Source: an uncultured Clostridium sp.
Lineage (GTDB): Bacteria; Bacillota; Clostridia; TANB77; CAG-508
Direction: 5' to 3'
Assembly: GCA_947244325.1 (NCBI GenBank)
Contig: CAMXJY010000001.1
Location: 171,322 to 235,321, forward strand
DNA: 64,000 bases
In this document: positions 12,034 to 22,633 of the stretch, piece after piece
Layout of the letters: each line of letters starts with the position of its first letter
Numbering within the stretch: the first letter of the stretch is position 1
Notes under the pieces: model-generated
Databases searched by the model: none
Told to the model about the DNA's origin: nothing
Seen by the model: only the letters and a program-made list of their open reading frames with translations
Made by a program: the position numbers and the translations under genes

Positions 12034-12203
12034 TTTTTTATCCTCTTACTTTATATAAATTTTATTCAACAATTTGACTCTTCATTTTACTATCCTTATA
12101 CTTTTCTAACTCGATTATATAAATTTCAAAATCTTTTGTCAACACGATATTTTGATATTCTATATTTCTAACTTTATATAATAATTTACGCAAAAAAGAA
12201 GAA

Positions 12204-12223
12204 GTGATAATTTTCATTATCAC
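12204..12223 (-). terminator. terminator hairpin GTGATAAT-tttc-ATTATCAC with a T-run on the minus strand
   Basis: 8-bp perfect stem 55 nt 3' of the 1079-aa gene, followed (on the minus strand) by a TTCTTCTTTTTT run. Confidence 0.6.
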
Positions 12224-12277
12224 CCCCTCTTAGAACATCATTTATATATATTCTTTTTTAAAGAAAGGAATATACTA

Positions 12278-15200
12278 TTATTTAAGATTACCAATTGTAG
12301 TTGATTCTACATTGTTTTCTGATACTTCAAATACTATTGTTACACTTGTAGAATCTGCTGCTACTTGTATTGTAGCACCTGTTCCATTTAATCCAAATGA
12401 ATCTAAGTATGCTCTTACTTCTTCGATGTTATCTTCTGTAACACCTGTTTCATTTAATAAGTCTTCATCAGAAATATCAACATTTACATCTAATGCAACT
12501 GGTGCTGCTTCTTTTGCAGTTACACTAACTGTTGAAGAAGCGCCTTTATTTACAGCTATTGATTTATCTCCTGATAAGTAAGAATCATCTATATCAACTG
12601 TTGCATCACCTTTTTGTACTTCTACATCTAAGTTTCCTGTTACAGCAACATTATTAGATGTTACAGCAACTGTTCCACCATTTGATAATATTGTAACTTT
12701 TCCTACTTGTCTGTCTGTTCCATTGTTGTTTGTATCAACGAATGCTATTGTCATAGCTTGATTTTCTTTATTTTCAAATGTATAATCTGTTTTTGAATCT
12801 CCATTAACAGCTATTGTTAATGTTGTGTCATTAACATTCATTGTTGCATCTTTAGTTGGTGTTACTTTTGTTCCGTTAACTGTAGCTGTTGTGTTAGCTA
12901 ATATTGTTGCATCATATGCAGCTGTACCACTAACTCTTACACCATTTCCTACTACTACTTCTTCAGGAGTACCTTCTACTCTAAATATAGAATTATTTCC
13001 TGTTAAAGTAACTTTTCCTGATGCGGCATTAACTATTCTATCAAAAGATGCTGTTCCTTCGATTTCAACTTCTGTATCTCCAATATCTCCTAATGTTACA
13101 GTTGTATCTGTAGCATTACCTGCATTTGTAGAGATACCAAATAATTTTAAAGTTATTTTTTCAGCTGTTGCTAATTTTACAACATCTTGTGGATATAATT
13201 TCATACCTGCAACTAATTCAACTAAAGATACGAATTCTGGTGTATATTCAGCATCTTTACCATTTGAAAAGTCATATGTTGCACCTTTGATTATTGCAAC
13301 TCCATTATCATAATAGAATGTATTTCCAACAGCTTCTTTTTCATCATTAACTATTGTTACATTGTTGATTGTTACTGATGCACGTTTTGTTCTAACATCA
13401 TAAGCTTTTCCTATATAATCTGATTCTCCTGTTATTCCATCTACTGTAGCTATTAATTTGAAAGCATATTCTGTAAAGTTATCTAATCCATCTATTACAG
13501 CTTCATTATCTTTGTTAACTTTTAAATCTCTTGTACCTACTTCAACAAATTTCTTTCTAGTTCCTCCACCGTTAACATCTTCTACTTTTTCTGTAACAGC
13601 TTTATAAACTTCTACTTTGTATGTAGGAACTTTATCATTTATTTTAATTTCATCTAAAGTAAATGTTATAGAATTTTCACCTTCTACTTTTTTAGTCATA
13701 TCTGGATCTACTACAAAGAATTCTTTTTCATCAGAAACTTCTGAATTTATAATTGGTCCATTATTTTCTTTTGCAATTACTTTTACTGTAGCTGTATAAA
13801 CTTTATTTGGAAGAATAGTAATACTTGGCTCATTAGCAAGTGAACATTTTGTTGGTAATACATTATTTACTCTTGCTATTTCTACTGTATTTCCTACTTT
13901 TATTCCATCTTCATCAAATATTTCAACTTCGTATTTTTCTATATCTTCTACTTTATTAGAATTTTCCCAAGATACTACATATTCTGTAGCACTTGTTGTA
14001 TCATTGTATTCTACATCAAATGCAACTTTTGTAGCTTCTTTTAAAGCTTTAACTTCAACAACAGCTGATTCAACTGTTTCTGAAGCATATGTTGAACCAT
14101 CATCTTTTCCTTCAACTGTAACTTCTATTTTATATTTTCCTGGTGTAGCTAGCATTATATCTGAAAAATCTACTTTTTCTACATCATCTGTTCCATCTTC
14201 TAATACAACTTCTTTAACTATTTTATCATTGTTATATAAAACAACTTTAACTTTTTTATCAGTTGTTTCTTCTAAAGTCCATTCAAATCCATTTTTATCT
14301 GCTGCTTTAAATGTAGGAACAACTATATCTTTTATAGCTTTTTCTTCTTCAACGTTACCATTTTCTTTAGAAATAACATATTTTTGAGGTGTAACTGTTA
14401 CACTTCCAAAATTGTTTTCTATTACATAATATAAATCATATGCTTTAGCAGTCTCTAAGTCACTAGCAACTACATAATTTTTTAATTCATTGTTAGCCAT
14501 GCTAACTGGTTTTGTTTCTAAAAGATCTGTTTGTGTTGGAGCTGCGCTTCCTTGAGCAACTACTTTATAGTAAACATTTTTAGCTGTTCCTTCACCATAA
14601 TATGTGAAAGATGCATTTGCTCTATCAGCATCAATACGTTTTGTTGATACACTTACTTTATCTGGATTTACTACATTTTTTACTAAAGTTCCTGCACCTA
14701 CAACATCTTTACCATCTTTTAATTCAAAAGATAAATTTCCATCAACTAAACTACTTAAATCTTCATCTTCTATAGTAATTAATTTTGATGTATTAGCAGG
14801 TACTGATACAGTTACTGTTACTGTATTAGCAGGGCTTGCTGAATCTTTAATTACTAAACTTAAATTTTTAGCTGTTTTTATTTCTTCTTTAAGACTTACA
14901 TCTATTTTAGATTTTGAAGCATTCATATTATTTACCATATCGTTTTCATTAACTGTAACTGTATAGTTATAGTTATCAACTGGTGGTATTACAACTTCTT
15001 CATCTGGCATTGAATCTACTACTGTATCTTTCATTCCAACAGCATATTGTTTTACTCTTAAAGAATCTCCAGCTGTATATTTTCCATCTCTTGCATCTAC
15101 ATCAGACGCAACTGTTAATAAATTATCAAAAGTTTCTAATCCAACATTACGTTTTTCAATTAATAAAGCATCTTCACCATTTACTGCTCCATCTTTACTA

Positions 15201-15517
15201 ACATCTCCATATACTAAAACTGTATATGTTTTTCCATTTACTTTAAAAGTATCTCCTGTAGCAACTTTGCTTTCATCACTTATGCTATCAACTTTAGCAT
15301 TTGGATATACAGCTTTTATTTCTTCAAAAGTTACTGTATCATCTTTACCATGTAATATAACTGGTACTACATTTGTTACATCACTAACTAATTTGTTATA
15401 TGGTGTTTTAGCAATTTCTGTTTCTATTTCAGCTGCTAAAGTTTTTGTATTAAAAACATTTAATGTTAAAATACCAGCTAAAGCAAGGCTAGAAACTATT
15501 TTAATTTTTTTGTTCAT
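12278..15517 (-). CDS. large secreted surface protein with an N-proximal dockerin-like module and many Ig-like/beta-sandwich repeats
   Basis: 1079 aa with a signal peptide. Residues ~100-165 show a duplicated Ca-binding dockerin pattern (DVSKDGAVNGEDALLIEKRNVG / DVDARDGKYTAGDSLRVKQYAVG). The remainder is Thr/Val/Asn-rich beta-strand repeats. No LPXTG. Confidence 0.6.
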   Translation of the reverse strand: MNKKIKIVSSLALAGILTLNVFNTKTLAAEIETEIAKTPYNKLVSDVTNVVPVILHGKDDTVTFEEIKAVYPNAKVDSISDESKVATGDTFKVNGKTYTVLVYGDVSKDGAVNGEDALLIEKRNVGLETFDNLLTVASDVDARDGKYTAGDSLRVKQYAVGMKDTVVDSMPDEEVVIPPVDNYNYTVTVNENDMVNNMNASKSKIDVSLKEEIKTAKNLSLVIKDSASPANTVTVTVSVPANTSKLITIEDEDLSSLVDGNLSFELKDGKDVVGAGTLVKNVVNPDKVSVSTKRIDADRANASFTYYGEGTAKNVYYKVVAQGSAAPTQTDLLETKPVSMANNELKNYVVASDLETAKAYDLYYVIENNFGSVTVTPQKYVISKENGNVEEEKAIKDIVVPTFKAADKNGFEWTLEETTDKKVKVVLYNNDKIVKEVVLEDGTDDVEKVDFSDIMLATPGKYKIEVTVEGKDDGSTYASETVESAVVEVKALKEATKVAFDVEYNDTTSATEYVVSWENSNKVEDIEKYEVEIFDEDGIKVGNTVEIARVNNVLPTKCSLANEPSITILPNKVYTATVKVIAKENNGPIINSEVSDEKEFFVVDPDMTKKVEGENSITFTLDEIKINDKVPTYKVEVYKAVTEKVEDVNGGGTRKKFVEVGTRDLKVNKDNEAVIDGLDNFTEYAFKLIATVDGITGESDYIGKAYDVRTKRASVTINNVTIVNDEKEAVGNTFYYDNGVAIIKGATYDFSNGKDAEYTPEFVSLVELVAGMKLYPQDVVKLATAEKITLKLFGISTNAGNATDTTVTLGDIGDTEVEIEGTASFDRIVNAASGKVTLTGNNSIFRVEGTPEEVVVGNGVRVSGTAAYDATILANTTATVNGTKVTPTKDATMNVNDTTLTIAVNGDSKTDYTFENKENQAMTIAFVDTNNNGTDRQVGKVTILSNGGTVAVTSNNVAVTGNLDVEVQKGDATVDIDDSYLSGDKSIAVNKGASSTVSVTAKEAAPVALDVNVDISDEDLLNETGVTEDNIEEVRAYLDSFGLNGTGATIQVAADSTSVTIVFEVSENNVESTTIGNLK

Positions 15518-15587
15518 TATAAATTTTCCCCCTAAAATTTAAAATTTATATTATCTATAATTAAATTTTTAAAATAATTGCAAAAAA

Positions 15588-16307
15588 TTATTTATTGTTT
15601 AATTTGATTGTTCCGATAGCTGCTGCTACTATTGCTAATGCTATAACAGCTACTATTGCATAATTAACACCTGTTTGAGGTAATCTTGTAGGCATTCCAT
15701 TTGCTGCTACTGGAGCTGGGTTAGCTGTTGCTACTGGAGCAGGATTAGCTACTGGAGCTGATGGTGTTGTTGTTCCATTTCCATTATCTGGTGTTGTTGC
15801 TCCGTTTCCATTTGATGATGATCCATTTCCATCTTCTGGTGTTACTGGTGTTGGATCTACTGGTGTAGGATCTACTGGTGTTGGATCTACTGGTGGCTTA
15901 ACTTCTTCAGCTTTTTTAGTTACTTCTACTGAACCATTAAATGTTCCTACTGCAGTTGCATCTACTGAACTTGTTACATTTACTGCAACGGCTGATGTTC
16001 CTTCTGCTTTAGCTGTAAAGTTAAATGTTAAAGTTTTTAATCCTCCAATTTTAGACATAGAGAAATTAATTGTTCCTGGTGTTGGTTCAAAAGTTACTTC
16101 TGGTCCACTTACAAAAGTTAAAACTTCTGGATCATATGTAACTGTTCCATCAGCGCTTTCTGCACTTCCAAAATCTACAGTTACTGCTACTGCTTTTCCT
16201 ACTTCTTCTTTAACGCTTGATACTGTTGCTGCGTTTACGTTTGTTGTAGCTGCTGCTAATACTACAAGAGCAACTACGATTGTTAAAAATAATTTTTTCA
16301 TTTTCAT
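15588..16307 (-). CDS. sortase-anchored (LPQTG) surface protein with an N-terminal cohesin-like domain and a Pro/Thr linker
   Basis: 239 aa with a signal peptide and a ~100-aa beta-sandwich with a cohesin-like VTVDFGSA...TYDPEVLTFVSG pattern. Has PVDPT x3 and PAPVA repeats, then LPQTG + hydrophobic helix + KLNNK tail. Confidence 0.65.
   Translation of the reverse strand: MKMKKLFLTIVVALVVLAAATTNVNAATVSSVKEEVGKAVAVTVDFGSAESADGTVTYDPEVLTFVSGPEVTFEPTPGTINFSMSKIGGLKTLTFNFTAKAEGTSAVAVNVTSSVDATAVGTFNGSVEVTKKAEEVKPPVDPTPVDPTPVDPTPVTPEDGNGSSSNGNGATTPDNGNGTTTPSAPVANPAPVATANPAPVAANGMPTRLPQTGVNYAIVAVIALAIVAAAIGTIKLNNK
15853..15897 (-). repeat. 3 x 15-nt tandem repeat encoding the (PVDPT)n linker
   Basis: ggatctactggtgt(t/a) repeated three times inside the LPQTG protein gene. 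Confidence 0.7.
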
Positions 16308-16366
16308 TTTTAAAAATTCCTTTCTTATTTATATATTTCTTTTTTAATATCTAAATTTAGTTTTAT

Positions 16367-17017
16367 CTATATTTCGCGTGCTTTACATATAAGCCTTGTT
16401 ACTCCTCCAGGATTACATGTAATTAAAGTAACCTCTCTCACTTCTTCTTCAGGTGGATATAAACATTTTATATCATCTGGATTACAAGTATAAATATCAT
16501 ATATTTTATATGTAACTTTTGTTTGGGTTTCTTTGTTGATTAAATCAAATGTGTCTCCTACTTCTAATTCCTTTAATCTTTTAAGTAAATTTTTGTAGTT
16601 ATGACCTGTTATACAAAAGTTTCCAATCTCGTTTATATCTCCTCCGTAGAATTTAGTTACTGATAAATTTAATGAAGCATCATCCGTTTTTTCCAGAATA
16701 TTCTTTTTGACATCAATTTTATCAATTACTAATTCACCAATTACTTTGTAATTTCCCATTTTATTTGGTAATTCACTTACATCTACTTTTTCTAATTCTT
16801 TAACAGTATTTGTTTCAGTTATTGGCTCGTCTACTATAGTATTTGTTTCATCTGTATTTGTTGGTATGTACTCGTTATTTTTTTTACAATTCAACCAAAT
16901 GCATATTCCTACAATTACTATAATAGCTACAAGAATTAATATCGGGATTAAAAACTTATTTTTATTTGATTTTTCTTCTGCAAATCTTTTTCCCTTGTGA
17001 CTAGGCTGCTTTTCCAT
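16367..17017 (-). CDS. sortase (class B/D-type), membrane anchored
   Basis: 216 aa with an N-terminal TM, a catalytic TLITC motif, and a His region (CITGHNY). Immediately upstream of the LPQTG substrate gene. Confidence 0.75.
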   Translation of the reverse strand: MEKQPSHKGKRFAEEKSNKNKFLIPILILVAIIVIVGICIWLNCKKNNEYIPTNTDETNTIVDEPITETNTVKELEKVDVSELPNKMGNYKVIGELVIDKIDVKKNILEKTDDASLNLSVTKFYGGDINEIGNFCITGHNYKNLLKRLKELEVGDTFDLINKETQTKVTYKIYDIYTCNPDDIKCLYPPEEEVREVTLITCNPGGVTRLICKAREI

Positions 17018-17293
17018 TTGAAATTATAGATTTCACCTCCTCTAGATACCTTTGTTTAAAGACACTTAAAAGCATCTTTAACCTATTTCAAGTTAACTCT
17101 TTAATTATTCTAATCTAAAACAGGTTAAAAGTCAATAAGTAATTTAAAATATTTTAAAATTATTGTAATAATCCTTTTAATTCGTTTTTGATTAAGTTTA
17201 TTGTTTAATTTTTTTTAATACTAATAGCTTATTTTATTTTTACTTATATTTTAAAAAAAATTTTAAACAATAACAAAAAAGGAGGTAATTATT

Positions 17294-17519
17294 ATTTTTA
17301 ATAACAGGTATCCGAGAATTCGTTCGCTACGTGAAGATCATGATTTAACTCAAAAAGAAATAGCCAAAATCCTTAATATGTCACAAACTGGCTATTCAAA
17401 ATATGAAACTGGTGAAAACGATATTCCTTCAAAAATTTTAATCGAACTAGCAAAATATTATAAAACTTCAGTTGATTATTTGTTAGGTATTACAGATGAA
17501 ATTAAACCTTACCCATAAT
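17294..17519 (+). CDS. XRE-family helix-turn-helix transcriptional regulator (small, about 74 aa); start codon non-canonical (ATT?) or mutated
   Basis: Frame encodes ..RYPRIRSLREDHDLTQKEIAKILNMSQTGYSKYETGENDIPSKILIELAKYYKTSVDYLLGITDEIKPYP*, a typical Clostridial HTH_XRE protein. A strong GGAGG RBS sits at 17281-17285 but there is no ATG/GTG/TTG in frame, hence the ORF track missed it. Confidence 0.55.
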
Positions 17520-17601: not shown

Positions 17602-17628
17602 TAGACAAAACCTCGGTCCCCATGTCTA
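17602..17628. repeat. palindromic element copy A: TAGACAAAACCTCGGTCCCCATGTCTA (overlaps the stop of the downstream minus gene)
   Basis: 6-bp stem + 15-nt loop. The loop is the reverse complement, with 1 mismatch, of the copy at 24125-24151. Confidence 0.6.
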
Positions 17629-18162
17629 TTTTTTATCATCAAAATTTATAAATTTACTTACGAATCCAACTATAGCGGTTGAATTTTGTTTTGCTATTTC
17701 TTTTGTTACTGCTTTTCCTCCAACTGTAAGTGATGCTACTATAGCACTAAATACAAATTGTATTTGTGAACTCATTCCATAATTTTCTGTAAGCTTTAAT
17801 GCAATCATTGCACTTATTGCTCCACTAAGTACTCCACATATATCTCCTATTACATCTGCACAAAAATTTGATACTTTTGCAGAATTTCTTATCATTTTTA
17901 TAGAAGTTTTTGCTCCTTTTATTTTTTTACTTGCTTGTGCATGAAAATCTTCTTCATTTGCTACTGTAACTGCTACACCTATTAAATCAAATAAAACACC
18001 TACTAAAATTACTAATATTAAAACTATTACTCCTAATATTATATTTAATTTTGAAATTGCTGTATTTGATATATATGAAAATAGCAATGATAGAATAAAA
18101 GTGGTAATAGCTATTCCTATTACCCAACTATTGTTATTATTTTTTTTCGATTTTTCTTTCAT
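17626..18162 (-). CDS. membrane protein with a nucleoside-recognition (Gate) domain, SpmB-like
   Basis: 178 aa with 2 N-terminal TM helices. C-terminal SGAISAMIALKLTENYG resembles the SpmB/Gate-domain SGAAALGVTAELIKTYG. Assignment tentative. Confidence 0.4.
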   Translation of the reverse strand: MKEKSKKNNNNSWVIGIAITTFILSLLFSYISNTAISKLNIILGVIVLILVILVGVLFDLIGVAVTVANEEDFHAQASKKIKGAKTSIKMIRNSAKVSNFCADVIGDICGVLSGAISAMIALKLTENYGMSSQIQFVFSAIVASLTVGGKAVTKEIAKQNSTAIVGFVSKFINFDDKK

Positions 18163-18439
18163 AGTATTCTTTATAATTAATTCTCCTTATTTTACATATA
18201 TTAATTTGATTCTTATTTTTTAGAAAATTTAAGTTTAAAAATTTTCTAAAAAATAATGAATGATTTTTACTATATAACATTTATAACTTTTTAATATAGA
18301 ACAAATCTGAAAAAATCTCAGATTATTTCAGTAAATTTGTTCGTGTGCCAAATTTATGCAATAAATTTGTGTACAATTTTTAGCGAAGCTTTTATATAAT
18401 AGGAAAGTATCACTTTCCTATTATAAAATAAATTATAAT

Positions 18440-19010
18440 TGGTAGGAACTTAAGTAAACTTTACGGTTTAGGTCTAGCAGATTTTCTCTATTTTTCACTT
18501 TCTATTACTAGAAAGCCGTTTCCGTTTAAGAAAAATACCCCTCATGCGAGGTCGCCAGATCACCACTTAAATCCGTACCTTAATCCTTAAATTCCCATGC
18601 TTATAATTTTAAGCAAACACTCTAGAAATTTTCTTTGAGTATCCTTGCCTGCTATTAGTCTTTTTTGCAACAAAAGTTTCATAATCAAATATAAAAAAGA
18701 TATGGCCGATATCTAAATTATATTTAAACGATTAATCCCCAGTTATCACTCAAGACAGTCATTACCACTACATAACAGATTGCTATATAGGTTTACCTAT
18801 TCAAATGAATAAGTCTCAACGAAAACAGGAATCATCTGTATGCCATTACAGGCTATCCTAATTTCTTTACTCTTCAGGACCACGCAAAACTGGGCGTAAT
18901 GCGCAGACTCTTGAAAAACTTCGACTGATAATACTTTCTAGTAGATTTTTAGGCCCACCCTCATAACAGGAGTGATACACTAGAATAATGCACCAATGCG
19001 ATATATTATA
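18440..19010. ncRNA. candidate large structured non-coding RNA (unclassified); ORF-free, locally GC-rich (~40-45% against a ~25% background)
   Basis: The 1066-nt gap between genes (18163-19228) has no ORF >=60 aa. The core has CG-containing, non-repetitive, GC-enriched stretches (gcgaggtcgccagatcaccac, ccacgcaaaactgggcgtaatgcgcagactc, aggcccaccctcataacaggagtg) typical of structured RNAs in AT-rich Firmicutes. Confidence 0.3.
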
Positions 19011-19228
19011 TCAGTTTGATATTTTTTTAGCAAATCTTTTGCCAACTTCTTTTAAAATGAATTTGCATTTTGCACTTATCAAAAATTAATTTATCTCTTT
19101 GATTCTCTTTTTTTCTTTCTTATACTATATAATTCTTGTTGTAAGATTTTTTAATATTCTAAAAAAAATTAGGCTAAAATAAAGTTGTTTCTATGGAAAA
19201 TGTTATTTATGCTTTTTTATATTTTATT

Positions 19229-22200
19229 CTATTCTACACTTTTTAATGATTCTATCATATCTACCTTTTTTAAAGAAAAATATGTTATAAAATTAACTAC
19301 AAATGTAAATATAATTGTTATTAAACATGCATATAAATAACTTTGTGGTAAAATTACTCTTTTAAATCTTAATATTCCTATTTCACAAGTTCCTAATATA
19401 AACGAATTTAAAATATATCCAGCTACTAATCCAAACACAATTCCTATTGCTGTTAAAACAACAATTTCTCTTGTTACATAATCATATACTTCTTTATCAT
19501 AAAATCCTAAAACTTTTATTGTTGCAAGCTCTCTAATTCTTTCACTTATATTTATATTAGATAAATTGTAAAGAACTATAAAAGCTAAAACTCCTGCTGA
19601 TACTATTAATACATATACAACTAAATTCATAGCACTTAAAGTATCATCCATTATTTGTACAAGATAACTTGTTAATGTTATTGATGCTATTTTAGAATCT
19701 TTTAAAATCTTTTCTGATAATTCATATTCTTTATTTTCATCTATTTTTTCTGTGTATTTTGTTAACAATACATTAGTAGATACTTTTTCTTTAAATAAAT
19801 GTTCATACATATTCTTTGTCATATAGACATAATGTGATATGTAATGTTCTGTTATTCCACCAACTTTTACTTTATATTCATTTTCATCTGAATCACTTAA
19901 GATAATCTCATCTCCTACTTTTACATTTATTAATTGAGATAATTTATCTGTTATTATTACTTCGTTATCATTTAAGTTTAATTTTTCTCCTGTTTTTAAG
20001 TCTTTTAATCTAATAACTTTATCTAAATCTTCTTTACTTTCTGCTACTAATATTTGTGCCTCTTCTTCTAAATCTCCATTTTTTATATCATCAGATGTTA
20101 AATAAATTTCTGTACAACTTTCTATTAGATCTTCACTTTCTAAATTTTCTTTTAAAGCACTAATTTCTTCTTTTGTTAATGTATTTTTTAGTCCTATAAG
20201 CATATCATAATTATAAATATCTAAATATTGATAATCCATTATCTTGGAAATTGAATCTTTTAATCCAAATCCTGCAACTATTAATGCTGTACAACCACAT
20301 ATTCCTACTACTGTCATTAAAAATCTTTTCTTATATCTAAACATATTTCTAGCTGTAACTTTTTGTGTAAAATTAAATCTGTTCCATATAAAAGGTATTT
20401 TTTCAATTAATACTCTTTTTCCTGCTTTTGGAGCTTTTGGTCTCATCATTTCAGCTGGTGTACTTATAAGTTCTTTATTTGCTGTATATATTGTTGCTCC
20501 AACAATACATATTGACATTATTGCAACACCCATTACTGTATAATATCTATTAAGTTCTATTACCATTTCAGATATATCATACATCATCTGATACATCGAT
20601 ATTATTATTCTTGGAAAAAATTCAAGTCCAAATATTGCACCTAATATTCCTCCTATTAATGAAGCAAGTAAAGAATAAATTATATACTTAGACATTATTT
20701 GTATTTTATTATATCCTAAAGCTTTTAAAGTTCCTATTTGTACTCTTTCTTCTTCAACCATTCTAGACATTGTTGTTAAACTTATTAATGTTGCAATTAT
20801 AAAAAATACTATTGGAAATGCTTCTCCTAATTTTTCTACATTTCCTGTATCTTGTGTATAACTACTAAATCCAGAATTATCATCTCTACTAAAAATATAC
20901 CATTTAGCATTTTCAATATCATTTACTTTTTCTCTTGCATCTATAAGTTTTCCTTCTGCATCTGCTATCTTTTCATTAAATTCTTGTTTTTTATCTAATA
21001 ATTCTTGCTGGCCTTCTGCTAATTTATTTTTTGCATCTTGAATTTCTTTTTTACCTTTTGCAATTTCTTTTTCTGCATCAGTAAACTTTTGTGCAGTTTC
21101 ATTTCTTTTTTGTGCAAGTGTTGCTTTTGATTCTGCAAGCTGATTATATCCAACCGCTATTTGATTTTGTCCTGATACTAATTTATTTTCAGCATCGCTT
21201 AACTCTTTTTGAATTTGATTTAATTGCACTTCCAACGCTGATTTTTGATTTTGACATTCTAAAATTCCTGCATTTATTTGGTTTAATTTTTCACTCGTCA
21301 TTCCATAGTTTTCTAATTCTTGCTTTTCTGCATTCATACTCGCTATTTGAGTTTTTACATATTCTATTGCAGATACAAGCTCACTTGTATCTCCTTCTGC
21401 TGTCTCTAATTCTTTTTGATATCCTGCAAGTGTATTATTTAGCATTACTAATGTTTCATCTATTTTACTAATTGTAGATAATACATTTTCAACTAATGCC
21501 TTGCTTTCTTGTAGTTCATTAATTTTTGAATCTAATGTATTTATTCCTGTTTGTAATTGTGATATTCCTGCTTCTGCTTCTTGTTTTTTTGCAGATAAAA
21601 GTGCATTTCCATCATTTATTTCTGTTTGTGACATTGCAAGTTTAGTTTCAGCTTCTGAAATTTGAGCTTCTGCATTTGCAAATTCTACTTCTGCTGTTTC
21701 TTTTCCATCTGCTAATTCTTTTTCTGCATTCTTTATCTCTTTTTCACCTTTTGCTATATCATTTTTTCCATCTGCAATTTCTTTTTCTGCATCTTGGATT
21801 TTCTTTTCTCCATCTGCTTTTTGCTGATTAAATTCTTTTTCTGCATCATCTAATTTCTGATTTGCTTCTGATATTAATTCATTATATCTAGCATTTTGTC
21901 TTTCTTCTTTTATTGACTCTAAATTATTTTCTACTTTTGATATTAATTCATCATATTCATCACTTATTGCATTATAATTTTTGCTATTTTCTGCTATAAT
22001 ATCTATTCCAGTATATATATCAGATACAATATTATTTTTATTTACATACATATAATATGTAACTTTTCCTGAGCCAAGTGTTGTAGTTCCTCTATCTCTT
22101 GATATATATAATGGACTTTTTACTATACCAACCACTTTTAATTTTGTATTTTTAAATGAGCTCTCTTCATCTTCAGTTAAGTTTTCTCTAATTTCTATAT

Positions 22201-22633
22201 AATCACCTATGCTGATTCCGTGTTTCATACTTGTTTCTATAACACATTCATCTTCATTTTGTGGAAGTTTTCCTTCTATAAGTTCTAGTTCATTAATCTC
22301 ATTTTCAAGAGCATATGCTTTTACAACAACCTCTTCATCATCTACAGTAACAAATACATCTTCACTATATGTTCCTATAGCTTTTTCTACTCCATCTACT
22401 TTTGAAATAGCATCAATATCATCATCTGTAAGTCCTAATGTTGAAACAACATTAATATCATATACATTGTATTTATCTAAATATGTATCTAATGTTATTT
22501 TCATATCAGGACTTGTTGCTCTTACACCCGCAAAAAAGCCTACCCCCATAAATGCCATAAGCAATATGGAGATAAACCTTTTATTTGTTTTCTTAATTTG
22601 TTTTATACTATCTTTTAATAAAGCTTTTTTCAT
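19229..22633 (-). CDS. FtsX-like ABC transporter permease (MacB/YxdM-type, two FtsX domains) with a ~380-aa coiled-coil extracellular insert; no cognate ATPase adjacent
   Basis: 1134 aa with an N-terminal TM, a long heptad-repeat region (..KEIADGKNDIAKGEKEIKNAEKELADGK..), then two 4-TM FtsX permease modules (..LGYNKIQIMSKYII.., ..KVLGFYDKEVYDYV..). Confidence 0.8.
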   Translation of the reverse strand: MKKALLKDSIKQIKKTNKRFISILLMAFMGVGFFAGVRATSPDMKITLDTYLDKYNVYDINVVSTLGLTDDDIDAISKVDGVEKAIGTYSEDVFVTVDDEEVVVKAYALENEINELELIEGKLPQNEDECVIETSMKHGISIGDYIEIRENLTEDEESSFKNTKLKVVGIVKSPLYISRDRGTTTLGSGKVTYYMYVNKNNIVSDIYTGIDIIAENSKNYNAISDEYDELISKVENNLESIKEERQNARYNELISEANQKLDDAEKEFNQQKADGEKKIQDAEKEIADGKNDIAKGEKEIKNAEKELADGKETAEVEFANAEAQISEAETKLAMSQTEINDGNALLSAKKQEAEAGISQLQTGINTLDSKINELQESKALVENVLSTISKIDETLVMLNNTLAGYQKELETAEGDTSELVSAIEYVKTQIASMNAEKQELENYGMTSEKLNQINAGILECQNQKSALEVQLNQIQKELSDAENKLVSGQNQIAVGYNQLAESKATLAQKRNETAQKFTDAEKEIAKGKKEIQDAKNKLAEGQQELLDKKQEFNEKIADAEGKLIDAREKVNDIENAKWYIFSRDDNSGFSSYTQDTGNVEKLGEAFPIVFFIIATLISLTTMSRMVEEERVQIGTLKALGYNKIQIMSKYIIYSLLASLIGGILGAIFGLEFFPRIIISMYQMMYDISEMVIELNRYYTVMGVAIMSICIVGATIYTANKELISTPAEMMRPKAPKAGKRVLIEKIPFIWNRFNFTQKVTARNMFRYKKRFLMTVVGICGCTALIVAGFGLKDSISKIMDYQYLDIYNYDMLIGLKNTLTKEEISALKENLESEDLIESCTEIYLTSDDIKNGDLEEEAQILVAESKEDLDKVIRLKDLKTGEKLNLNDNEVIITDKLSQLINVKVGDEIILSDSDENEYKVKVGGITEHYISHYVYMTKNMYEHLFKEKVSTNVLLTKYTEKIDENKEYELSEKILKDSKIASITLTSYLVQIMDDTLSAMNLVVYVLIVSAGVLAFIVLYNLSNINISERIRELATIKVLGFYDKEVYDYVTREIVVLTAIGIVFGLVAGYILNSFILGTCEIGILRFKRVILPQSYLYACLITIIFTFVVNFITYFSLKKVDMIESLKSVE

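Follow-up and report, generated by a model that had tools for sequence, protein, structure and literature searches.

How a large secreted protein that carries no wall anchor of its own might be held at the surface of a Gram-positive cell is the question raised by a small gene cluster in a 64,000-nucleotide (nt) stretch of DNA, hereafter the window, from an uncultured Clostridium sp. (GenBank assembly GCA_947244325.1, contig CAMXJY010000001.1, positions 171,322 to 235,321 of the forward strand). An original prediction, made from the sequence, had placed here three consecutive genes for a sortase, a small LPQTG-anchored protein with a cohesin-like domain and a secreted protein of 1079 amino acids (aa) with a dockerin near its N-terminus, and had proposed that the large protein docks onto the small one. 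Our analysis leads us to consider it probable, though some way from certain, that the cluster is a self-contained and probably XRE-regulated operon for the non-covalent display of one large surface protein, which we call the cargo. The three genes lie exactly where they had been placed, all on the minus strand, and their parts are as follows.

16367-17017, minus strand: sortase gene, an open reading frame (ORF) of 216 aa
15588-16307, minus strand: gene for the anchoring LPQTG protein, an ORF of 239 aa
Residues 1-26 of the anchor protein: signal peptide
15912-16229, minus strand: cohesin-like domain, residues 27-132 of the anchor protein, about 105 aa (Pfam, AlphaFold2 (AF2), Foldseek, hhalign and a joint profile)
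Residues 133-205 of the anchor protein: Pro/Thr/Asn-rich linker of about 75 residues, predicted to span the wall
15669-15683, minus strand: LPQTG sortase recognition motif, residues 209-213 of the anchor protein
12278-15517, minus strand: cargo protein gene, an ORF of 1079 aa
Residues 1-29 of the cargo: signal peptide
Residues ~30-100 of the cargo: small N-terminal domain
15044-15211, minus strand: type I dockerin, residues 103-158 of the cargo (Pfam Dockerin_1)
13418-14935, minus strand: fn3/immunoglobulin (Ig)-like stalk of roughly five tandem beta-sandwiches, residues ~195-700 of the cargo
12281-13375, minus strand: beta-rich C-terminal head of about 365 aa, residues ~715-1079 of the cargo (AF2)

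The 239-aa protein has the architecture described for monovalent anchoring scaffoldins (PMC4611034, PMC12997984), with a signal peptide, a single cohesin-like domain, a linker and a sortase signal, and with no catalytic module. Its C-terminus reads RLPQTG-VNYAIVAVIALAIVAAAIGTI-KLNNK, comprising the recognition motif, a hydrophobic transmembrane helix and a basic tail, which agrees with its prediction as an LPQTG-anchored protein. LPQTG is invariant within the clade to which the window belongs, and (K/R)LPQTG is kept in all seven cassettes described below; the Pfam Gram_pos_anchor model matched the window protein below threshold (12.8 against 20).

The enzyme that would act on this motif is likewise a sortase as predicted, matching Pfam PF04203 at 62.8 bits against a cutoff of 26.6, with an N-terminal transmembrane helix and a catalytic domain at residues 96-214. 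Its closest solved relative is SrtD of Clostridium perfringens (PDB 4d70; E 3e-5, 26.7 bits), and the alignment of the two keeps the His, Cys and Arg motifs in register as GH(N/R) (GH in the window), T(L/I)(I/V)TC (TLITC in the window) and a downstream Arg. The catalytic triad of 4d70 consists of His109, Cys171 and Arg178, and SrtD prefers LPQTGS and is encoded beside an LPQTGS wall protein (PMC4498605). Class C sortases are also among the PDB matches of the window enzyme, and the NCBIfam models for sortase classes C (NF033745, 58.8 bits), D (NF033746, 37.2 bits) and E (NF033747, 41.9 bits) all scored below their cutoffs of 160-165 bits.

Is the domain at residues 27-132 of the small protein then a cohesin? 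From its relatives we conclude that it is best regarded as a shortened, divergent one, an assignment that rests on family-level evidence from sister cassettes, hhalign, a joint profile and a fold search, and not on the Pfam score of the window protein itself. In two sister cassettes (L011 and L012) the counterparts of the small protein pass the Pfam Cohesin threshold with 30.3 and 30.8 bits over model positions 2-132, and it is through the sister cassettes, reached by way of cargo homologues, that the window clade is linked to true cohesins. An hhalign comparison of the window-clade profile (A4) with the sister-clade profile (A6) returned a probability of 97.9% (E 5e-13). The sister-clade profile in turn matches the NagJ cohesin of C. 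perfringens in the PDB (E 1.2e-7), and a joint profile (A9) in which the window clade is included matches NagJ (E 5e-6) plus some 15 scaffoldin cohesins. When the anchor protein was searched against the PDB as a single sequence, its best matches, albeit weak ones, were the cohesin-length chains 5nrm and 5nrk (E 0.01). The AF2 model of the domain contains eight strands at a predicted local distance difference test (pLDDT) score of 66-88, the cohesin fold being a nine-stranded jelly-roll beta-sandwich, and the top two PDB matches to this model in Foldseek are both cohesins, namely 6kgc_A (E 9e-6) and the non-cellulosomal 2xdh from A. fulgidus (E 2e-5), with target-normalised template modelling (TM) scores of about 0.5. 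The cohesin-like label of the original prediction can thus be upheld for the family, whilst the window protein taken alone stays under the Pfam threshold.

The anchor family is very rare, with six proteins among 5.8 billion clusters and two species representatives in GTDB, both of them metagenome-assembled genomes labelled "uncultured Clostridium sp.". An exhaustive HMMER search with the window-clade profile over 1.84 billion representatives gave 11 matches, some of which are uninformative repeat or low-complexity proteins (P0019, P0021, P0026). In the first of these, a metagenomic protein of 1984 aa, 20 repeated stretches match cohesin-profile positions 27-59 (E 4e-42); a cohesin sub-motif may have been repeated to make up the protein, or the matches may be a low-complexity artefact. 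P0024, a metagenomic protein of 198 aa, joins a cohesin-like domain akin to that of the window to a C-terminal dockerin (Dockerin_1, 19.5 bits), the layout of a minimal monovalent adaptor scaffoldin. A related yet different arrangement occurs in L016 (124-3613), in which a cohesin-like protein with an MPQTG anchor (P0025) precedes a 190-aa protein that matches Cohesin weakly and, beyond it, a third protein longer than 607 aa, placing two cohesin-like genes in tandem.

Turning to the cargo, the prediction of a secreted, Ig-repeat protein without a wall anchor agrees with what we found. It has a signal peptide and an fn3/Ig-like stalk (fn3 being sub-threshold in the window protein and matched in 11 of the 12 family members), its C-terminus is not hydrophobic, and Pfam searches of the window protein and its family members gave no match to LPXTG, SLH, CWB2 or LysM. 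The dockerin that had been predicted near its N-terminus is also present: Dockerin_1 (PF00404) matches at 25.0 bits against a cutoff of 22.9, covering model positions 1-55 of 57, and is matched by 11 of the 12 cargo homologues (best E 2.7e-12). A profile of the family's dockerins matches the solved dockerins 1daq, 2mte, 4uyq_B, 1ohz_B and 3ul4_B with E values from 1e-8 to 1e-6, and the best, though weak, single-sequence PDB matches of the cargo are again dockerins (3ul4_B and 4uyp_B). A type I dockerin is defined by a tandem pair of ~22-residue segments, in each of which an EF-hand-like Ca loop of the form D-x-[DN]-x-D-G-x5-D leads into a helix. The first loop of the window protein, DVSKDGAVNGED, is canonically spaced; its position 3 is S, compared with D in close relatives.

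The AF2 model of the cargo has a mean pLDDT of 74 and places a small N-terminal domain at residues ~49-110 (pLDDT ~82-85), with a low-confidence linker after the dockerin. Its head comprises many short strands, modelled at a pLDDT of 85-93 over residues ~810-1060, and on the model we read this region as solenoid-like. The head gave no Pfam or PDB sequence match, and fold searches returned fn3 matches only.

If the anchor and the cargo are partners, their genes might be expected to travel together, and they do. The same order of sortase, LPQTG cohesin protein (~220-245 aa) and dockerin protein (~1040-1100 aa) was found in seven further cassettes, three of the window clade (L001, L004, L005) and four others (L014, L011, L012, L013), and the cassette is known from at least five diverged lineages, these being the window clade (L001, L004, L005, L006, L007), L014, L011, L012 and L008/L010/L013. 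The cargo homologues in the sister cassettes are 33-35% identical to that of the window, and the genes flanking the cassette differ wholly between loci, comprising OLE/holA in one setting, a MacB-type transporter and UvrB in another, and fatty-acid synthesis or teichoic-acid genes in others. Given that one order persists in diverged lineages and in different neighbourhoods, the arrangement is not due to chance, and the persistence of the anchor/cargo linkage among such distant relatives in unrelated surroundings supports the proposed logic of docking. A profile of the N-terminal domain plus dockerin (A8) found almost only short fragments and generic dockerins, and no new full-length type of cargo.

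One of these loci carries more than a single pair. In L013 (1-8075; also L008 and L010), a called gene of 2790 aa lying upstream of the cassette consists of two parts. It opens with the C-terminal portion of a cohesin-like protein anchored by ILPQTG and continues in frame, with no stop between, into a second part whose signal peptide and N-terminal dockerin precede a Peptidase_M26 domain. Either a single ORF has been called across a second anchor/cargo pair, or the fusion is genuine. L013 appears to carry two socket/plug pairs side by side, and with an ILPQTG cohesin-like gene directly before a dockerin-Peptidase_M26 protein, the pairing of anchor then cargo recurs with a different cargo.

The cassette also includes a gene that the original prediction had missed. 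The following features frame the three minus-strand genes.

17291-17518, plus strand: divergent XRE-family (HTH_3) regulator of about 75 aa (Pfam HTH_3, 56.1 bits)
17018-17290, no strand assigned: AT-rich divergent intergenic region between regulator and sortase (from reading the sequence)
12196-12231, minus strand: intrinsic-terminator-like hairpin with a 16-bp stem and T run, 3' of the cargo gene and closing the operon

A divergent HTH_3 gene lies upstream of the sortase in the window and in sister cassettes (seen in L011, L012 and L013), and the order of divergently oriented HTH gene, sortase, cohesin-LPQTG protein and dockerin protein is kept in the window clade, L014, L011, L012 and L013. 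The three genes originally described are confirmed, but the unit is one of four genes, regulator included. The sortase, anchor and cargo genes themselves look like one transcription unit, as they are separated by gaps of only 59 and 70 nt, each is preceded by a plausible ribosome-binding site (RBS), a terminator scan found no terminator-like hairpin between them and a hairpin follows the cargo gene. The regulator of the window has no in-frame ATG, GTG or TTG ahead of residue 31. An RBS, AAGGAGG, at 17279-17285 precedes ATT-ATT-ATT (through 17297), and since both elements are conserved across the window clade (window, L001, L004, L006 and L007), a non-canonical ATT at 17291 or 17294 is the probable start; in sister clades the start codon is ATG or TTG. 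The divergent region at 17018-17290 presumably holds both promoters and an operator. A promoter-like TTGACT-17-TAGAAT at 17135-17107 (minus strand) is a consensus match only, such sites being no commoner in the region than in shuffled sequence.

In the arrangement that we favour, the membrane sortase would cleave the LPQTG motif of the 239-aa protein and link the protein to peptidoglycan, as its motifs and its homology to an LPQTGS-preferring sortase suggest, and the Pro-rich linker would take the single cohesin domain through the wall. The secreted cargo would bind this cohesin via its N-terminal, Ca-dependent dockerin, to which the domain identities and the conserved linkage both point, and support for the dockerin may come from the small N-terminal domain, in the fashion of an X-module. 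With the cargo attached by its N-terminus, the fn3 stalk would project the beta-rich C-terminal head outward, where it would presumably bind a ligand, the cargo behaving as an adhesin-like fibril. Expression of the cassette would be under the control of the XRE protein.

Several observations weigh against this arrangement and need to be considered. The window anchor protein falls short of the Pfam Cohesin (PF00963) threshold, scoring 20.6 against 24.1 bits (E 5.5e-4) over residues 27-109 and model positions 3-95 of 139, and at about 105 aa its domain is short for a 139-position model. Taken alone, the window-clade profile has no significant cohesin match in the PDB (E 0.2-0.3), with collagenase PKD-like domains doing equally well, and in the Foldseek search generic Ig sandwiches trail the cohesins closely (E 1e-4, about tenfold behind) at TM scores that are themselves only ~0.5. 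On the dockerin side, the second loop, DVDARDGKYTAGD, is one residue too long in the window clade, while in sister clades its length is canonical and position 3 is V or K. AF2 gives the dockerin three helices at a pLDDT below 50; our guess is that the low confidence stems from a shallow alignment and a Ca-dependent fold, and on that account the model speaks neither for nor against the assignment. The 64-kb window holds no further cohesin or dockerin, although the rest of the genome may hold some. Pairwise identities of all the components are intercorrelated (r 0.67-0.96) and do not single out the cohesin-dockerin pair, and as shared phylogeny drives all of them, such correlation is no specific proof of co-evolution. 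Finally, the interaction of the pair is inferred from conserved gene linkage and domain identity.

Some of these points would also suit a reading in which the genes are coincidental neighbours, with the small protein being an ordinary sortase-anchored Ig-like protein and the dockerin binding another cohesin, a polysaccharide or only Ca. A short domain below the Pfam threshold, with generic beta-sandwiches close behind in the fold search, is what this would lead one to see, and to our knowledge non-cellulosomal dockerins often have no known partner. We nevertheless judge it quite improbable, as the hhalign and PDB profile matches back homology to true cohesins, the cassette is kept in unrelated neighbourhoods at 33% cargo identity and the cargo lacks any other feature that would retain it. 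It is somewhat less improbable, but still unlikely, that the anchored cohesin serves as a general hub, a socket shared by numerous dockerin proteins (peptidases and glycosidases, for example) encoded elsewhere in the genome, with the 1079-aa protein being one client among others or not even the main one. The scaffoldins Sca2 and cSca5 bind many dockerins, peptidase ones included, a dockerin-bearing Peptidase_M26 adjoins the cassette in L013, and the dockerin-profile search found many other dockerin-bearing metagenome fragments. However, no other dockerin is encoded in the 64-kb window, all of the cassettes seen link the large protein with the anchor, and the M26 cargo of L013 has an ILPQTG cohesin-like gene of its own upstream, which suggests one anchor per cargo.

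Assembly of a pilus or fibre, in which a class C-type sortase would polymerise the small protein and the large one would form a tip adhesin, is an explanation we reject as scarcely credible. The class C model is indeed the best NCBIfam match of the sortase (58.8 bits), and class C enzymes appear among its PDB matches, but that score is far under the cutoff of 160 and there is a single sortase. Lacking a sorting signal, the large protein cannot be built in by a sortase, and the small protein is a single domain with a long disordered linker and, on reading its sequence, no recognisable YPKN-type pilin motif. An S-layer attachment was considered as well and was set aside, since neither SLH nor CWB2 domains turned up and no match supported it. 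Display of the cargo on a sortase-fixed cohesin thus remains the reading we prefer.

How new is such an arrangement? The original prediction had called the compact cassette unusual, which overstates matters, as sortase-anchored single-cohesin anchors are known and CttA is a known example of an adhesin docked to one. In published accounts, sortase-anchored monovalent cohesin anchors are established or proposed in the form of ScaE (Ruminococcus flavefaciens and R. champanellensis), Sca2 (R. bromii) and cSca5 (Limousia) (PMC4611034, PMC12997984). The likeness of our proteins to ScaE, CttA, Sca2 and cSca5 is drawn from architecture as described. In descriptions of the R. flavefaciens system, ScaE has a signal peptide, one cohesin, a linker and an LPXTG-type anchor, and in the CttA XDoc:ScaE complex a binding protein that is not an enzyme docks onto an anchor of this kind, the non-catalytic, dockerin-bearing CttA being tethered so as to join the cell wall to the substrate. 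The same descriptions place the X-module-dockerin of CttA at the C-terminus and its binding modules at the N-terminus, whereas the window cargo has an N-terminal dockerin and a C-terminal head, and they have ScaE also tethering a whole cellulosome through ScaB. The ScaE and CttA genes sit in one cluster, and we know of no sortase or regulator gene adjacent to this sca cluster.

Sca2 of the R. bromii amylosome and cSca5 of the Limousia pullorum mucinolysome likewise combine a monovalent cohesin with a C-terminal sortase signal, and have been proposed as general surface anchors for dockerin proteins, including peptidases (PMC4611034, PMC12997984). They serve many enzyme clients in multi-scaffoldin systems, whereas the present unit brings one non-enzymatic client together with a sortase of its own and an XRE regulator. 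The NagJ cohesin and NagH dockerin of C. perfringens (2jh2, 2o4e, 2ozn) offer a further comparison, with NagJ representing the closest solved cohesin by profile and its host a low-GC, non-cellulolytic and host-associated Clostridium, but these non-cellulosomal cohesins lie inside secreted glycoside hydrolases rather than in a dedicated LPXTG anchor. The SrtD operon of C. perfringens (4d70) resembles the cassette in having the nearest solved sortase, an LPQTGS preference and an adjoining LPQTGS wall protein (PMC4498605), although the match amounts to only 26.7 bits and the window sortase is under the class D NCBIfam cutoff. What is distinctive here is the presence of a dedicated sortase and regulator in one compact unit, an N-terminal dockerin that follows a conserved small domain, a single cargo made of an fn3 stalk and a head without detectable relative, and the occurrence of these features in a small clade of uncultured low-GC Clostridia. 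A non-exhaustive literature search found no published description of this cassette. The biology is an extension of the logic of ScaE/CttA, Sca2 and cSca5 and not a new principle; it is the packaging that appears to be new.

Comparison of the window with L014 may report on how the components have diverged. Identity is 75-80% for the sortase, 66% for the N-terminal domain of the cargo, about 51% for its head and 44% for its stalk, falling to 39-41% for the dockerin and 36-37% for the cohesin. The cohesin and dockerin are therefore the fastest-diverging parts, even though the dockerin adjoins the well-conserved N-terminal domain, which hints at joint diversification, or replacement, of the two as a socket-plug pair. 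A bolder proposal can be built on this, which we regard as possible rather than probable, namely that in non-cellulolytic Clostridia the cassettes form a separate class of fibrillar adhesin that is built in two pieces, with a sortase-fixed cohesin socket, an N-terminally plugged stalk and an XRE switch of its own, and with cohesin-dockerin pairs that co-diversify into private, orthogonal pairs. Were this so, the polarity of the cargo would be the reverse of that of classical LPXTG adhesins.

If docking of the cargo to the anchored cohesin is real, then cohesin-dockerin display would not be confined to polysaccharide-degrading multi-enzyme complexes, and the cassette would provide a minimal, one-socket and one-plug mounting of a large adhesin-like fibre on the Gram-positive wall. 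It would also represent a natural alternative to direct LPXTG anchoring, one which leaves the C-terminus free. The diverged cassettes would then supply small, naturally paired cohesin-dockerin modules together with a matching sortase and LPQTG signal, which could be harnessed as orthogonal parts for surface display. The C-terminal head, ~365 aa in length, is modelled with confidence and lacks any detectable relative; it is a candidate for a new ligand-binding domain in a gut-type Clostridium.

The wider window has a GC content of about 26%, with nearly all of its genes on the minus strand. Directly past the cassette terminator and upstream of holA, a perfect sigma-70 promoter, TTGACA-17-TATAAT (12 of 12 positions), is found at 12114-12142 (minus strand). 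Just upstream of the cassette lies a full-length OLE (Ornate Large Extremophilic) RNA at 18423-19012 (minus strand; Rfam RF01071, 277.7 bits, model positions 1-616 of 616), and directly downstream of this RNA, at the usual place of oapA, is a multi-pass membrane ORF of 178 aa (17626-18162, minus strand) whose sole Pfam match is to CNNM at 21.6 bits, under the cutoff of 28.4. The window also contains two ORFs of ~1135 aa, at 19229-22633 and 59205-62615 (both minus strand), the former of which reads as a permease of the MacB/FtsX type into which a very long coiled coil is inserted. An ORF annotated as MacB_PCD/FtsX is also found upstream of the cassette in L011.

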